This document shows, in pieces, positions 3,998-41,498 of a stretch of 64,000 nt of DNA. The first letter of the stretch is position 1, and every line of letters starts with the position of its first letter. Origin of the DNA: an uncultured Clostridium sp. (lineage in GTDB: Bacteria; Bacillota; Clostridia; TANB77; CAG-508). The notes below the pieces were generated by a model. It was not told the origin of the DNA. It saw nothing but the letters and a program-made list of their open reading frames with translations, and did not search any database. Location: positions 355-64,354 of the forward strand of contig CAMTJT010000009.1 of NCBI GenBank assembly GCA_947073285.1. Direction: 5' to 3'. Made by a program: the position numbers and the translations under genes.

Positions 3998-4430
3998 ATG
4001 CTTTTATTTATATACCTTTGTATTTTAGTATTAAATGTAGTAGCTGTGTACTTAGTATACCGATTTTTAGGTACACAATTAGAGAAAAAAGAAAAGTGGA
4101 TTTTTATTATAGCAGGAGTTGCTATTATGTATTTAATAGTAACTGCTGTGTATGGAATAAGTACCAAAGATATCGATTTAGGAAAAGCTGCAAGTACAAC
4201 ACGTAATTTAATTACATTTGCTTTTGTACCTGTAAATCGGAATTCTAATTTTACCATTTTTAGCAAGGTCATATCGCTATTTAAAAGAGGGAAGATTACA
4301 AACTGATAAATTCAAAAATCGTTGTATTTTAATGGCAGTTATTCTAGTGGTATTATTAGTAATAGAGTTTTTCTATTTTAAAAATGTCACTTTAGGGACG
4401 TTGGTTAATGTGACAAAAATGTCACTTTAG
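3998..4430 (+). CDS. Small multi-pass membrane protein, continuous only with a +1 shift at CGG 4238-4240; ends inside a REP-like unit
   Basis: Frame 0 gives ...FAFVPVN then CGG. The +1 frame continues GILILPFLARSYRYLKEGRLQTDKFKNRCILMAVILVVLLVIEFFYFKN..., which has coherent TM segments, to TAG 4428-4430. Confidence 0.5.
4238..4241 (+). other. In-frame CGG at a +1 frame change (AAU CGG A -> AAU c GGA)
   Basis: The upstream ORF frame hits CGG, and the hydrophobic protein continues in the +1 frame. Confidence 0.6.
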
Positions 4431-4450: not shown

Positions 4451-4458
4451 AAAATGTC

Positions 4459-4580
4459 GCACAACCATTTGCAGCCAAGCTGAATATAATGTTGTAAGTA
4501 TTAAAAAGATAGCACAACCATTTGCAGCCAAGTTGCATATAATGGTTTGTAAGCACTAAAGTGCTAACGCAACCATTTAA
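4459..4580 (+). repeat. Tandem ~53-bp repeat (gcacaaccatttgcagccaagYtgMatataatgNttgtaag), two full copies plus a partial third
   Basis: Copies start at 4459 and 4512, with a partial copy at 4569. The module atataatgNtt(t)gtaa recurs next to the REP pair at 19021-19085. Confidence 0.6.
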
Positions 4581-4622
4581 CTTTTGGGGGATGAAAAAAT
4601 AATAAAAAAGAAGGAGCAAAAA

Positions 4623-16997: not shown

Positions 16998-18938
16998 ATG
17001 AAAAATAAGTATAATAATGATGCCATTATAGGTGGCAAAAATATTACAGCAAGTTTAACAAAAAAAGGAGAACTCTTAAGAGTTATGTATCCAGCACCAG
17101 ATTATAGAAGTTGGATAGAAGAATTCTTAACAGGTGTAAAAATTAATGATTCTGCCATGATATATTTGCATGATGATATTAATAATACCTATTCACAATA
17201 TTATACAGAAAATACAAATGTATTACATACTGAAATTACCAACACCTATTTTAATCTTTTAATAAAACAAACAGATTTTGCTTTATTAAAAGAAGATATT
17301 TTAGTAAAAAAATATCAATTTGAAAATAAAAACAATATAGAGTTAAAGGTAAATTTTTTAACACATGCAAAACTACTATCAGACTTTAATAACATGGTAG
17401 GAGCAGAAATAAAAGATAATTGCCTAATTCAATATTGCCATGATTATAGTATGTACACCTTTTCAAATTATCCCCTTTTAAGCTATCAACTAAATGATAC
17501 TAAACAAACTATTAGTAGTGGAGAAATTCATGATAAAGACTATATTGGTATGTCTTCAGACTCTAGTATCTCTTATGATATTGGTATCCTAAAACCAGGA
17601 GAAAAAAAAGAACTAGTGTTATATATGTATTTTAGAGATAACAACCAGAAATTTGCAGAAGAAGACCTAAAAAAACAAATTACACAAATTACCAGATTAG
17701 ATATAAATAAAGAGCAACAAGCTATAGAAAAATATTGGAAAAAATATGTAAAAGACCATACTACAAGAGAATTACTTCCAGAAACAAATACATTTAATAA
17801 AAAAGTAAATCAAATTTATCAAAGAAGTATTTTACTATTTCCATTATTAACCAATCAAGAAGTAGGTGGAATTGCAGCAAGTATGGAAGTAGATGAAGGG
17901 TTATCACAATGTGGAAGATATAGCTATTGTTGGCCACGAGATGCTGTATTTATTACAAGAGCATTAGATAAAATAAAAATGAATAAAGAAGCAGAAAAAT
18001 TTTATAAAGTATTTTGCAAAGAAACACAAAATAAAAATGGTATGTGGGAGCAAAGATTTTATACAGATGGCAGGTTAGCACCATGTTGGGGGTATCAAAT
18101 TGATGAAACAGCAAGTGTTATTTATGGAGTTTATGCACATTATGAAGAAACCAAAGAAACAAAATTCCTAAAAGAAACCTATAAAATGTGTGAAAATGCG
18201 ACAAAATTCTTAGGAATTTATATGGATAACATATTAGGAACAAAAGATGAATCAGATGTTGTAAAAAAAGAAATAGAAGAAACTTATCATACAGCAGAAA
18301 GAAATAAACTTCCAGTAAGCTATGACTTGTGGGAAATGCATGAAGGAGTACATTTATATTCACTTAGTTCCATCTATGCAGCTTTTGGAGCAATGAAAAA
18401 AATACATAGTGTTTTAAAGCCAGAATATGAACAAAGCAATCGTTTAAAAGTAGAAGCAATGAATAAATTAGAAAACAAAATGACCAAATATCAAGATGAA
18501 ATAAAAAAATATATGGTAGACAATTTGTATGATGAAAATACTAAAACCTTTTTGAGAAACTTAAATGATAAGCAAACAGATATTAGTGTGGTAGGAGTGG
18601 TTGAACCATTTGCTATTTTTTCACCAAAAGAAAAAAAGGTACAAAATACAATAGAAAAAATAAACATGACCTTAAGAACTTATACAGGAGGTTACTTAAG
18701 ATTTGAAGATGACCACTATTGTGGTGGTAAAAGCCCATGGCCAATAGCAACACTTTGGATGGCAATGTATTATCAAAAAGCGGGTGAAAAGAAAAAAGCA
18801 AATGAATGTATAGAATTTGTAGTAAACACTGCTAACGAACATGGCTTTTTAGCAGAGCAAGTTGACAACCAAACTATGCAACCTAGCTGGGTCAATGGCT
18901 TAGCTTGGTCACATGCAATGTTCATTTTGTCACTTTAG
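16998..18938 (+). CDS. Glycoside hydrolase family 15 protein (glucoamylase/glucodextranase-like)
   Basis: CWPRDAVFITRAL, YDLWEMHEGVHLYS, PWPIATLWMA. The last codons and the stop (tca ctt tag) lie inside a REP-like unit. Confidence 0.85.
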   Translation: MKNKYNNDAIIGGKNITASLTKKGELLRVMYPAPDYRSWIEEFLTGVKINDSAMIYLHDDINNTYSQYYTENTNVLHTEITNTYFNLLIKQTDFALLKEDILVKKYQFENKNNIELKVNFLTHAKLLSDFNNMVGAEIKDNCLIQYCHDYSMYTFSNYPLLSYQLNDTKQTISSGEIHDKDYIGMSSDSSISYDIGILKPGEKKELVLYMYFRDNNQKFAEEDLKKQITQITRLDINKEQQAIEKYWKKYVKDHTTRELLPETNTFNKKVNQIYQRSILLFPLLTNQEVGGIAASMEVDEGLSQCGRYSYCWPRDAVFITRALDKIKMNKEAEKFYKVFCKETQNKNGMWEQRFYTDGRLAPCWGYQIDETASVIYGVYAHYEETKETKFLKETYKMCENATKFLGIYMDNILGTKDESDVVKKEIEETYHTAERNKLPVSYDLWEMHEGVHLYSLSSIYAAFGAMKKIHSVLKPEYEQSNRLKVEAMNKLENKMTKYQDEIKKYMVDNLYDENTKTFLRNLNDKQTDISVVGVVEPFAIFSPKEKKVQNTIEKINMTLRTYTGGYLRFEDDHYCGGKSPWPIATLWMAMYYQKAGEKKKANECIEFVVNTANEHGFLAEQVDNQTMQPSWVNGLAWSHAMFILSL

Positions 18939-18993
18939 GGACGTACTCTTGTGTGACATTTTTGTCACTTTAGGGACGTACTCATGTGTGACA
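18928..18993 (+). repeat. Two direct REP-like units (18928-18958, 18963-18993)
   Basis: tgtcactttagggacgtactcttgtgtgaca and tgtcactttagggacgtactcatgtgtgaca. Confidence 0.85.
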
Positions 18994-19564
18994 TTTGGGG
19001 GTGACTTACCACAGGTCACATATAATGCTTTATAATTGATTTCTAATGCTAAAGATTTAAGTTTATTATAATGCTTTGTAATGGCTAAAACCATAACACA
19101 AGTATGATAATCAATAACACAAGTATTTAATTTTGAAGACACAATTTGAAAGTAAAAATAATTATTAGCAAGTGAGTTATAAGGGGTATTAGAGTGGTGG
19201 TTAATGAAGAACTAATAGAAATTAATCCTGAGACAATATCTTTATTGAAGTCATTAAGTAAAATTAAAGATAAGTAAAGATTTAGTATTTTTAGACATTA
19301 GTTATAATAACATGTGCTTTTGTGTTTTCAAAATGCTGAAACTATAGAAATATATATAAGGAAGAATAACTTAGAAATTTTGAAATCCACAAAGACAAAT
19401 ACTATTAGGTATTAAAAAGTACAAATAAAACGTGAAAGTTTTGTGAAGACTATAGCATATTTAATAAAAGTGTGCTATAGTCTTTGTAGTTTGAGAAATT
19501 TAGGATATATAAATTAGAAAGATAATTTTGGGGGCAAATTAATAATGAAAGTAGGTGTTATAAG

Positions 19565-20377
19565 ATGCCCCGTATGAAAAGGCAAAAATCAAATACAAAT
19601 GTATATCATATTATATTACGTGGAATTAATCAGCAGGAAATTTTTTATGATAATATTGATAGAAGAAAATTTTTAAAAGTATTAAAAGAAACGAAGGAAA
19701 AATATCAATATAATTTGTATGCCTATGTTCTAATGAATAATCATATTCATTTATTAATAATGGATAAAGAAAACAATTTGTCAAAAATAATGCAGTCTTT
19801 AGCAACCAGTTATGCATTATACTTTAATAAAAAATACGAAAGAATAGGGCATGTATTTCATAATCGATTTAAAAGTAAAAATGTAAATACATTATCATAT
19901 TTTATAAATTTGATAAGATATATTCATTTTAATCCTGTAAAGGCAGGATTATGTGAATATTCTAAATATGATTGGAGCAGTTATCAAGAATATTTCAAAA
20001 TAAAAAGACTAGTAGATTCAGAAAAAGTATTAAAAATGGCAGAAATGAATAAACAAGATTTTAGAAATTTCCATGAGGAATACAAAAAGACGAAAGGATT
20101 TATTCTAGAAGACTTCGAAATGGAGAAAAAATGTATAGATGATGAAACAGCAATTAAAATGATAAAGCTAAAGTTCAACATAGATAATTTAGTTGCAATT
20201 CAAAATTTAAAGGTTCAAGAAAGAGATGAAATAATTGCGAAAATAGCAGAGATAGAAGAAATAGAAAGAACTCAACTTGCAAGGATACTAGGTATTAATA
20301 AGAGAATGTTGTATAGGGCAATTAAGAAAAAAAGTGTCACAAATGAGTACGTCCCCAAAGTGACAAAAGGAGAATAA
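19565..20377 (+). CDS. IS200/IS605-like HUH Y1 transposase of the REP-associated (RAYT) type, with a C-terminal HTH
   Basis: HUH motif NNHIHLLI, catalytic Tyr motif RYIHFNPVKAG, C-terminal HTH (TQLARILGINKRMLYRAIKK). The 3' end reads through a REP unit. Confidence 0.8.
   Translation: MPRMKRQKSNTNVYHIILRGINQQEIFYDNIDRRKFLKVLKETKEKYQYNLYAYVLMNNHIHLLIMDKENNLSKIMQSLATSYALYFNKKYERIGHVFHNRFKSKNVNTLSYFINLIRYIHFNPVKAGLCEYSKYDWSSYQEYFKIKRLVDSEKVLKMAEMNKQDFRNFHEEYKKTKGFILEDFEMEKKCIDDETAIKMIKLKFNIDNLVAIQNLKVQERDEIIAKIAEIEEIERTQLARILGINKRMLYRAIKKKSVTNEYVPKVTKGE
20335..20365 (-). repeat. REP-like unit in inverted orientation
   Basis: tgtcacaaatgagtacgtccccaaagtgaca, the reverse complement of the unit consensus. 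Confidence 0.85.
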
Positions 20378-20381
20378 ATAA

Positions 20382-21741
20382 ATGGCAAAAACAAAGACAG
20401 TATTTGTATGTAATAGTTGTGGATATGAGGCAACAAAATGGTTAGGAAAATGTCCAGGATGTAATGAATGGAATAGTTTTTATGAAGAAAAAGTAGCAAG
20501 TGGGGTGGCTAGTAAAACAAAAGAAAAAAAGACAATGACACCAAGGCTTTTAAATGAAGTAGAAGGAAAAGATGCAGTAAGAACGCATACTGGAATTGGA
20601 GAATTAGATAGAGTATTAGGTGGAGGATTGGTAAAAGGTTCTTTGGTTTTAGTAGGTGGAGAGCCAGGAATAGGTAAGTCTACTTTGATTTTGCAACTTT
20701 GTGATAAAATGCAAGGAGAAGGCAAAGTGCTATATGTATCAGGAGAAGAATCAGCAGAGCAAATTAAAATAAGGGCAGATAGACTTCGGAATTCACAATG
20801 AAAATATTTTATTTCTAGGAGAGACAGATATTGAATTAATAGAAAATAATATTTTAGAGTTAAATCCTAAATTAGTGATTATAGATTCTATCCAAACAAT
20901 GTATTCAGATGAAATTTCATCTGCAGCAGGTACAGTGAGTCAAGTTCGAGAAATAACAGCACGTATTATGCGTGTATGTAAAAGTAATGAGATTACTACC
21001 ATTATTATAGGGCATGTTACAAAAGAAGGAAATATCGCAGGACCAAGGGTTTTAGAGCATATGGTAGATACTGTACTTTATCTAGAAGGAGAGAGATATT
21101 TTTCTTACCGAATTTTAAGAGGTGTTAAAAACCGTTTTGGTTCTACCAATGAGGTTGGTATGTTTGAAATGCAAAGTGAGGGAATGGTAGAAATAACAAA
21201 TCCATCTTCTGTACTTATTTCAGAAAGAGAAGATAACCCATCTGGCTCTGTAATTGTGGCAAGTATGGAAGGAACAAGACCATTGTTAATTGAACTGCAA
21301 GCTTTAACTACTCCTACTGTTTTTGGACTTCCTCGCCGAACAGCGAATGGTTTAGATTATAACAGACTTACTTTATTAGTAGCTGTACTTGAAAAGAGAG
21401 CAGGTTTAGCATTAGGCTCACAAGATATTTATCTAAATGTAGTAAGTGGTATTAAAATTAATGAACCATCAGTAGATTTAGGAATGGTGCTAGTATGTGC
21501 TTCTAGCTTTAAAAATGTTGCAGTTGATAAAACTACTGTTATTATGGGAGAAGTAGGCTTGACAGGTGAGGTAAGAGCTGTTAATTTGATAGATAAAAGA
21601 CTAAAAGAAGCGGAAAAGCTAGGATTTAAAACTTGTATTATACCAGAAAGTAATAAAAAACTATTGAAAGAAAAGTATAAATTAGATATAATAGGGGTTA
21701 GAAATGTGAATGAAGCAATGAAAGCAGTAGGATTAAAATAA
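20382..21741 (+). CDS. radA: DNA repair protein RadA/Sms, continuous only with a +1 shift at CGG 20787-20789
   Basis: Zn finger CNSCGYEATKWLGKCPGCNEWNS, Walker A GGEPGIGKST, ...EQIKIRADRL then CGG. The +1 frame continues GIHNENILFLGETDIE...IIDSIQTMY...KNRFG and the Lon-like C-terminal domain. Confidence 0.9.
20787..20790 (+). other. In-frame CGG at a +1 frame change (CUU CGG A -> CUU c GGA)
   Basis: The junction restores the conserved RADRLGI. The zero frame stops 4 codons later. Confidence 0.9.
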
Positions 21742-21743
21742 TT

Positions 21744-21809
21744 TGTCACTTTGGGGACGTACTTATTTGTGACAAAAGTGTCACAAATAAGTACGTCCCC
21801 AAAGTGACA
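21744..21809. repeat. Perfect palindrome made of two inverted REP-like units (31-bp arms, 4-nt spacer) between radA and disA
   Basis: Unit 21744-21774 and its exact reverse complement at 21779-21809. Confidence 0.9.
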
Positions 21810-34712: not shown

Positions 34713-35018
34713 TTTAGAAAATGTATTAAAATAAGAAGGTAGTTTATAGTAAAGAAAAATAATTGTAAATTTTTTGTGAACTCACAAAATTAAGAAATAA
34801 AAAGAAAAGCAGAATATTTGCTAAACAAAAAGCAAAAATATTCTGCTTTTTTCCAAAAAAAACTATTGCAAAGAAAGTTATTTATTGTTATGATTAAATA
34901 GTAAAAGTAAAAAAGTGTCACAAATAGGCAGAAAATTTACAATAATTAAGAAAAAACAAAGCCAAAATGTTGTATTTAAGCTGTCAGAGTGTGGCAACAA
35001 ATGAGGAGTTACAAAAAA

Positions 35019-41137: not shown

Positions 41138-41213
41138 GGGCGCATAGCTCAGCTGGGAGAGCATCTGCCTTACAAGCAGGAGGTCATAGGTTCGAGCCCT
41201 ATTGCGCCCACCA
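41138..41213 (+). tRNA. tRNA-Val (anticodon TAC), CCA encoded
   Basis: Cloverleaf folded by hand: acceptor gggcgca/tgcgccc, anticodon loop cttacaa, T-arm ggttcgagcc. Confidence 0.9.
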
Positions 41214-41280
41214 TTTCTAAAAATATTTAGGAATACTAAATATTTTTTTGCCTAAAAAATACCATATGGTATTGATTTAC

Positions 41281-41357
41281 GGCCTGGTAGTTCAGTTGGT
41301 TAGAACGCTAGCCTGTCACGCTAGAGGTCGACGGTTCGAGCCCGTTCCAGGTCGCCA
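41281..41357 (+). tRNA. tRNA-Asp (anticodon GTC), CCA encoded
   Basis: Anticodon stem ctagc/gctag with loop ctgtcac; T-loop ggttcgagcc. Confidence 0.9.
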
Positions 41358-41422
41358 TTTTTTTATATATACATAAATAAATAGTAGATTATTTACTATA
41401 GTACTAATTTGAATAAATATAT

Positions 41423-41498
41423 GCCTTTATAGCTCAGTTGGTAGAGCAAGGGACTGAAAATCCCTGTGTCGGTGGTTCGATTCCACCTGAAGGCACCA
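41423..41498 (+). tRNA. tRNA-Phe (anticodon GAA), CCA encoded
   Basis: Anticodon stem aggga/tccct with loop ctgaaaa; T-loop ggttcgattcc. Confidence 0.9.

Follow-up and report, generated by a model that had tools for sequence, protein, structure and literature searches.

A single-copy Y1/HUH nuclease gene and a dispersed family of 31-bp hairpin repeats in a gut Clostridia bacterium: a probable TIRYT-type system

The Y1 locus and its protein

The window analyzed here is a 64,000-nt stretch (C9:355-64354) from an uncultured, low-GC gut Clostridia bacterium. It carries a gene for a Y1/HUH tyrosine nuclease of 270 amino acids (aa), bracketed by copies of a 31-bp repeat unit, and this gene and its repeats are the subject of the present analysis. 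The host assembly, G000, comprises 1.86 Mb in 59 contigs (C2, C9, C20, etc.), with 28.6% GC and 94.9% completeness. Positions given without a contig are those of the window, and its features are collected in Table 1.

The Y1 gene lies between a GH15 gene and radA, with two forward units on its left and one inverted unit on its right. A preliminary description of the window had counted seven units, and the pattern TGTCACTTTRGGGACGT-N7-TGTGACA was found exactly at 4385, 4420, 18928 and 18963 (+), 20335 (-), 21744 (+) and 21779 (-). There were no matches in 100 dinucleotide-preserving shuffles of the window. The 16-nt fragment proposed for 34910-34925 did not hold up, with a match of only 11-12 nt, indistinguishable from chance. 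The right unit does overlap the Y1 gene at its 3' end, where it supplies the last ~14 codons (SVTNEYVPKVTKGE). This unit-encoded tail was unconserved in the homologues, and residues 260-270 were disordered in the AlphaFold model, which had a mean pLDDT of 84.

Both motifs previously read from the open reading frame (ORF) were present, the HUH motif as NNHIHLL (H60, H62) and the catalytic tyrosine motif as RYIHFNPVKAG (Y119). The protein matched Pfam Y1_Tnp with an E value of 1.9e-13. In an alignment of 38 homologues, H62 and Y119 were invariant and H60 nearly so. The NCBIfam model REP_Tyr_transpos gave 70 bits (cut-off 80), versus 24.5 bits for IS200 (cut-off 55); it scored above IS200, and was the best NCBIfam match, in all 38 homologues. 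The C-terminal helix-turn-helix (HTH) was recovered as weak Pfam matches to HTH_8 and HTH_17 at residues 235-256, as HTH_23, HTH_29 or HTH_7 matches in homologues, and as a helical C-terminal domain in the model. Sigma-70 region-4-like matches occurred in 6 of the 38 homologues, and a C-terminal segment, Q-(L/I)-A-R-I-L-G-x-N-x-R-x-I-Y-R-A, was conserved.

A PDB sequence search with the single protein returned nothing relevant, and a profile reached 4ER8, the E. coli TnpA-REP protein with a REP hairpin, only at E 0.09. A fold search was therefore needed to reach 4ER8, which was then the top PDB match of the model (E 1.3e-7, target TM 0.72), followed by the IS608, ISDra2 and IS200 transposases. 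At E <= 1e-5 there were 596 homologues, nearly all in metagenomic 'Clostridia bacterium' records. Plasmid and phage collections gave only distant, partial-query matches. The gene is the sole Y1 gene of the assembly, and no tnpB partner was found beside it.

Repeat units in the genome, the genus and the species

The unit reads TGTCAC-TTTRGGGACGT-N7-T-GTGACA. As had been claimed, it is not a compact GC hairpin: the 6-bp inverted termini TGTCAC and GTGACA make up the stem and enclose a 19-nt loop with the conserved motif. Across the genome, 24 exact and 35 near-exact copies were counted by pattern, and nhmmer detected ~37 copies, some of them partial, distributed over 20 loci and 13 of the 59 contigs. 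The unit is thus scattered and not confined to the region of the Y1 gene. Eight copies were identical to the unit abutting this gene. The 7-mer GGGACGT occurred 38 times genome-wide, almost always within units.

Units were arranged as singles, as head-to-tail tandems with a 35-bp period (31 + 4), and as four perfect inverted doublets (unit +, 4 nt, unit -). The doublets were always convergent, like the units around the Y1 gene relative to each other. A doublet folds into a perfect hairpin with a 31-bp stem (-39.7 kcal/mol, z -16). The hairpins were not followed by a T-tract, and no Rfam family fitted the units, the region upstream of the Y1 gene or the module that accompanies the units (see below). 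All units were at gene boundaries, in agreement with the preliminary description. The spacers that they occupied were very short, running from a stop codon to the ribosome-binding site of the following gene (radA-disA, queA-tgt, pheS-pheT). The units often overlapped the stop, and several gave the upstream gene its stop codon through the TAG in TTTAGGGAC.

A net orientation could be assigned at 11 loci, and at 9 of these the core was on the strand that is G-rich in the surrounding 20 kb. This bias is compatible with the lagging-strand template as the site of action, as in IS608, and is confounded with gene co-orientation. In three arrays the first unit was truncated (C2:30807, C20:12732, C34:12177), which is explained equally well by slippage and by a cleavage footprint.

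The order GH15, Y1, radA was kept in at least 15 species of the genus. Identities were 41-69% for the Y1 protein, 87-97% for the C-terminal part of RadA and 65-86% for the C-terminal part of GH15. Inverted units flanked each homologous locus examined, with outer full units carrying the core GGGGACGT and an inner half-unit (5' stem plus GGGGACA(C/T/G)) adjoining the gene. Second Y1 paralogues at other loci had unit variants of their own. The orthologous radA-disA spacer contained various unit types in some species and was 9-60 nt long, without units, in others.

The stems were lineage-specific. Within the genus they included TGTCAC/GTGACA, TGTCAG/CTGACA, TGTCGC/GCGACA and TGGTAAT/ATTACCA; other families of the order had TGAAACA...TGTTTCA, GTGCCA...TGGCAC, TGACCA...TGGTCA and TGTGGTCAG...CTGACCACA. 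At least eight distinct, fully complementary stems enclose a constant RGGGAC(G/A) core. MAFFT put units of unequal length out of stem register, so a core-anchored scan with control motifs was used instead. RGGGAC was enclosed by a perfect inverted repeat of 6 nt or more in 20% of its occurrences in this genome and in 36% of those at the relatives' loci, versus ~5% for control motifs (4- to 7-fold).

The genus survey covered 51 genomes, in which TTRGGGACGT was counted and a match at E <= 1e-50 was taken as a close homologue. Counts were bimodal, with either 14-73 copies or at most 8, and controls ranged from 0 to 7. A close homologue was found in 18 of the 20 motif-rich genomes and was absent from 24 of the 31 motif-poor ones, the remaining seven of which use other cores. 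The genomes are related, and these association counts are therefore to be read as a description and not as a statistical test.

Strains of the species were compared through contigs of other metagenomes carrying identical proteins. The three sites around the gene, the tandem upstream of miaA and the pheS-pheT doublet were fixed among the strains compared. At the queA-tgt site, two strains had a doublet and two had one (-) unit, a difference of exactly 35 nt. The C36 site had one unit in three strains and two units and a 15-nt mini-unit with TGTT spacers in another; a form with two units alone was also seen at this site, and further variants were present elsewhere. These differences in array size show recent dynamics. 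The mini-unit (TGTCACAAAGTGACA / TGTCACTTTGTGACA) was seen in L083, at the equivalent of C36:5630-5660. It corresponds to a unit minus an exact 16-nt loop segment, GGGGACGTACTCATTT, between two TTT repeats, and either a microhomology deletion or a loop-cleavage footprint could account for it. Contig L075 (ENA ERZ13641599 NODE_3914) was excluded as a probable metagenome chimera at a repeat; in it, tgt is fused to unrelated GC-rich DNA with an RraA-like gene exactly at the expected unit site.

Associated features of the window

Table 1 Coordinates of the Y1 gene, the repeat units and associated features.
Feature	Position	Strand	Remark
Tandem unit pair, spacer AAAA	4385..4450	+	Upstream of miaA; found in two other strains
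Two TATAAT-plus-hairpin module copies	4455..4590	+	End ATTTAACTTTTGGGGG right before the miaA ribosome-binding site
Left unit 1	18928..18958	+	TAG at 18936-18938 is the stop of the upstream GH15 gene
Left unit 2	18963..18993	+	In tandem with unit 1, 4-nt spacer TTTT
Stretch between left units and Y1 gene	18994..19564	+	Modules, gene remnant, hairpin, GGGGGCA box
Two TATAAT-plus-hairpin module copies	~19020-19130		Inside 18994..19564
Last 27 codons of deleted AF_0155-family gene	19195-19278		Inside 18994..19564
Terminator-like hairpin of deleted AF_0155-family gene	19450-19485		Inside 18994..19564
Conserved GGGGGCA box	19530-19536		About 30 nt 5' of the Y1 start codon
Y1/HUH tyrosine nuclease gene with C-terminal HTH (TIRYT / RAYT-like), 270 aa	19565..20377	+	Domain, fold and motif matches
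Right unit, inverted	20335..20365	-	Overlaps Y1 gene 3' end; identical to the commonest ('master') genome copy
Inverted doublet (unit +, AAAG, unit -)	21744..21809	.	Fills the radA-disA spacer
Second-family unit	51642-51669	+	Stem TGTCGY/RCGACA, core GGGGACAG
Second-family unit	51675-51696	+	Same stem and core
Second-family unit	51717-51746	-	Same stem and core
Further second-family sites in G000	C2:18200, C2:22170, C7:14577, C12:50347-50447, C20:10333-10365, C26:184, others
Module sites in G000	C2:18259-18335, C34:12300-12360, C20:12835-12895, C35:~4300-4360

The GGGGGCA box was located 25-35 nt upstream of the Y1 start in all genus homologues (loci L003-L014 and the window). It resembles the unit core and may serve in autoregulation or in recognition of the ends. 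In other strains of the species, the left units were separated from the Y1 gene by a further gene, of 132 aa (L052-L054 9315-9713), which belongs to the AF_0155 family (Pfam PF27217). In the strain of the window and three others, a deletion of ~400 bp spared only the 27 terminal codons and the terminator-like hairpin of this gene. It is a passenger inside the element ends and was not found in the relatives of the species.

The variant family noted earlier at 51642-51746 proved to be a real second family, TGTCGY...RGGGACAG...RCGACA, with ~15 copies genome-wide. A recurrent module of 60-90 nt, roughly ...TTGCATATAATGSTTTGTAAG-hairpin-CTAACRCAAnnATTTAACTTTTGGGG, was found just inside unit arrays; it may represent an outward-facing promoter with its leader or else encode a small RNA. 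At C20 it stands between + units and a - unit, like a miniature gene-less element, and it also adjoins units in the relative G002 (L047).

To the right of the Y1 gene, radA (20382-21741) appears split into ORFs of 139 and 288 aa, with the break at 20787-20790. The break falls at an in-frame CGG (CTT CGG AAT), and reading CGGA as one glycine step gives a single RadA of 452 aa (ADRLGIHNEN...). The Y1 gene is without any CGG codon, and one-base frame breaks were also seen in radA of several relatives. Three consecutive, ordinary tRNA genes are located at 41138-41495 (Rfam tRNA, 67-72 bits).

Interpretation and comparison with known systems

We consider it likely that the locus is a TIRYT-type (RAYT-like) system, in which a fixed, single-copy Y1/HUH-HTH nuclease presumably acts on single-stranded DNA, at a putative cleavage site within its own family of 31-bp hairpins. 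The preliminary description had proposed a REP/RAYT arrangement. This is supported, as the units both bracket the gene and are dispersed, and the assignment was refined to TIRYT/TIRtron, as distinct from the classical GTAG-tagged REP/RAYT of Proteobacteria. The gene is not an ordinary multi-copy IS200 transposase either, as judged by its single copy, its higher RAYT than IS200 score and its fold match to 4ER8.

TIRYTs are RAYT-like genes flanked by terminal inverted repeats (TIRs) sharing GGGGWSAS, and some of the resulting TIRtrons have moderately abundant, dispersed TIR families that occur as dimers and clusters (Di Nocera, De Gregorio & Rocco 2013, PMC3733652). They have been equated with subclass 2.1 of the TnpA-Y1 (TnpA-REP-like) proteins, which carry a C-terminal Bac_DnaA_C, HTH_23 or HTH_28 domain and near whose genes no REP-like sequences were found (Quentin et al. 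2018, PMC6006769). Going by published features, this is the closest known class for the Y1 gene. Shared features are a Y1 protein made longer than RAYTs by a C-terminal HTH, a gene between inverted repeats, and repeats that also occur in moderate number as singles, dimers and clusters. The inner half-units of the relatives (GGGGACAC) and the core of the second family fit GGGGWSAS, or GGGG(A/T)(C/G)A(C/G), and the main core, GGGGACGT, differs from it at the last two positions. The present system differs in its host, a low-GC member of the Clostridia: Firmicutes repeat examples are named neither in PMC3733652 nor in PMC6006769, and the phyla listed with GTAG and CGTC repeats in the former exclude Firmicutes. 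It differs also in its repeat, a short, discrete 31-bp hairpin with a stem that co-varies between species.

The E. coli REP/BIME-RAYT (4ER8) and Pseudomonas REPIN-RAYT systems (Nunvar 2010; Bertels & Rainey 2011, PMC3116915) likewise have a Y1/HUH gene that is present once, is passed on vertically and is enclosed by inverted repeats. Further likenesses are the dispersed extragenic hairpins, the inverted doublets, which correspond to REPINs, the mutant variants around a master sequence, the single repeat family of each paralogue and the top fold match. However, the units here have no 5' GTAG tag or compact GC-rich stem, they number tens and not hundreds, and the protein has an additional HTH domain and scores below the NCBIfam RAYT cut-off. 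RAYT Group 1, the widest-spread group, includes Clostridia, and its flanking 16-mers occur ~12 times per replicon (Bertels, Gallie & Rainey 2017, PMC5581495). By description, it is similar in hosts and in copy number, while clostridial repeats are undescribed in that work. The IS200/IS605 elements IS608 and ISDra2 share the Y1/HUH fold, subterminal hairpins recognized as single-stranded DNA and, plausibly, the lagging-strand-template bias; unlike the gene here, they are multi-copy, mobile as a whole and often accompanied by tnpB. CGTC-tagged REPs were considered, as the reverse strand of the unit reads ACGTCCCC, and were rejected, since those have 8-9-bp stems, 4-5-nt loops and a terminal tag (Di Nocera 2013, PMC3733652).

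E. coli TnpA-REP and IS608 TnpA suggest a mechanism by analogy. Where its DNA is single-stranded, probably as the template of the lagging strand, the unit would fold into a hairpin. Specificity would reside in the stem, which differs between lineages, and the HUH/Tyr119 active site would read or cut the constant loop core TT-RGGGACGT. Units released in this way would be copied or moved into short spacers just past stop codons, giving rise to tandems and doublets. The protein may use its HTH domain to stay attached to double-stranded DNA, for example at the GGGGGCA box of its own leader (autoregulation). The gene itself would now be immobile (domesticated).

Several observations weigh against a TIRYT-type system of this kind. 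A single unit is a weak hairpin on single-stranded DNA (-3.3 to -3.8 kcal/mol, z about -2.7), and the protein falls short of the NCBIfam RAYT cut-off. The main core, (A/G)GGGACGT, departs from GGGGWSAS at the last two positions. Co-varying dyad symmetry would also fit a dimeric protein binding double-stranded DNA. Slippage between the TGTCAC direct repeats or across the hairpins could change arrays without any protein, and the comparison of strains caught changes in array size only, with no insertion at a new locus. No second Y1 gene accompanies the second family in the 95%-complete assembly; either the family is an orphan, or it shares the one Y1 protein, or its own gene is missing from the assembly. 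Finally, two genomes rich in core motifs, G055 (53 motifs) and G056 (22), are without a close homologue. At 97% and 95% completeness, Y1 matches were found in G055 only at 29% identity and in G056 not at all. The repeats of these two genomes may be orphans that have outlived a lost gene, or the assemblies may have missed the gene.

Such orphans would suit a fossil system, in which the Y1 gene is inert or kept for another host function and relic units change by slippage and recombination only. So would the modest copy number (~37), the restriction of strain differences to growth and shrinkage of arrays at existing sites, and the fixation of the three gene-flanking sites and the pheS-pheT doublet in all strains compared. 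We nevertheless regard a fossil as unlikely. The ORF is intact, its catalytic residues are invariant or, for H60, nearly so among the 38 homologues, and the master copy beside the gene recurs unchanged in eight units. Different unit types fill orthologous spacers in different species. Protein and units co-diverge among species, and paralogues have their own unit variants, which requires continued interaction. Still less probable is an autonomous IS200/IS605-like element, a 'TIRtron' that moves as a whole and whose solo ends and MITE-like deletion derivatives make up the dispersed units. Inverted ends do bound the gene, and in some strains they enclose a passenger; two or three homologues are present at separate loci in some relatives, and C20:12732-12927, with + units, a promoter-like module and a - unit, resembles a gene-deleted element. 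Yet the genome holds one copy, at the same chromosomal place as in at least 15 species, between genes far more conserved than Y1 itself. An IS200 score of less than half the cut-off, the lack of tnpB among the neighbours (GH15 gene, radA) and the distant, partial plasmid and phage matches speak against mobility as well.

Units might, alternatively, be regulatory or structural elements of the host (a dimeric HTH operator, a terminator or an mRNA stabilizer), with an incidental Y1 gene next to them. Their precise position between the stop and the next ribosome-binding site in the conserved pairs radA-disA, queA-tgt and pheS-pheT is in line with this, doublets would make very stable RNA or DNA hairpins, and the co-varying dyad symmetry suits a dimeric protein. 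However, the core motif is strongly linked to the Y1 gene throughout the genus, every homologue is flanked by inverted units, and the hairpins have no following T-tract. Orthologous spacers are empty in many species, so the units are unneeded for those operons. Host elements of this sort are thus a highly improbable explanation.

Within a TIRYT-type system, a more far-reaching proposal can be made, which we put forward tentatively and at somewhat short of even chances. The units may be the long-missing single-stranded DNA substrates of the Y1-HTH (subclass 2.1 / TIRYT) proteins, with a code in which the active site reads the constant core and the co-varying stem sets lineage and paralogue specificity. 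The system may still be active in this species, as the 35-nt array steps would suggest, and may form a resident, vertically inherited, REPIN/RAYT-like replicator fixed by radA in a Gram-positive lineage.

The gain is incremental, the class being already known, though little studied. Of some value are the additions made here to this class, namely discrete hairpin repeats with co-varying stems and a fixed place of the gene by radA. For annotation, the units matter in several ways: neighbouring genes take stop codons and C-terminal residues from them, they fill spacers within operons, and metagenome assemblies break at them. REP/RAYT biology rests nearly all on Proteobacteria, and the Y1-HTH (TIRYT) branch has no biochemistry. 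The genus is a compact natural experiment, with a fixed locus, diverse stems on a constant loop motif, paralogue variants and array changes between strains, and it provides concrete oligonucleotide substrates and specificity swaps.

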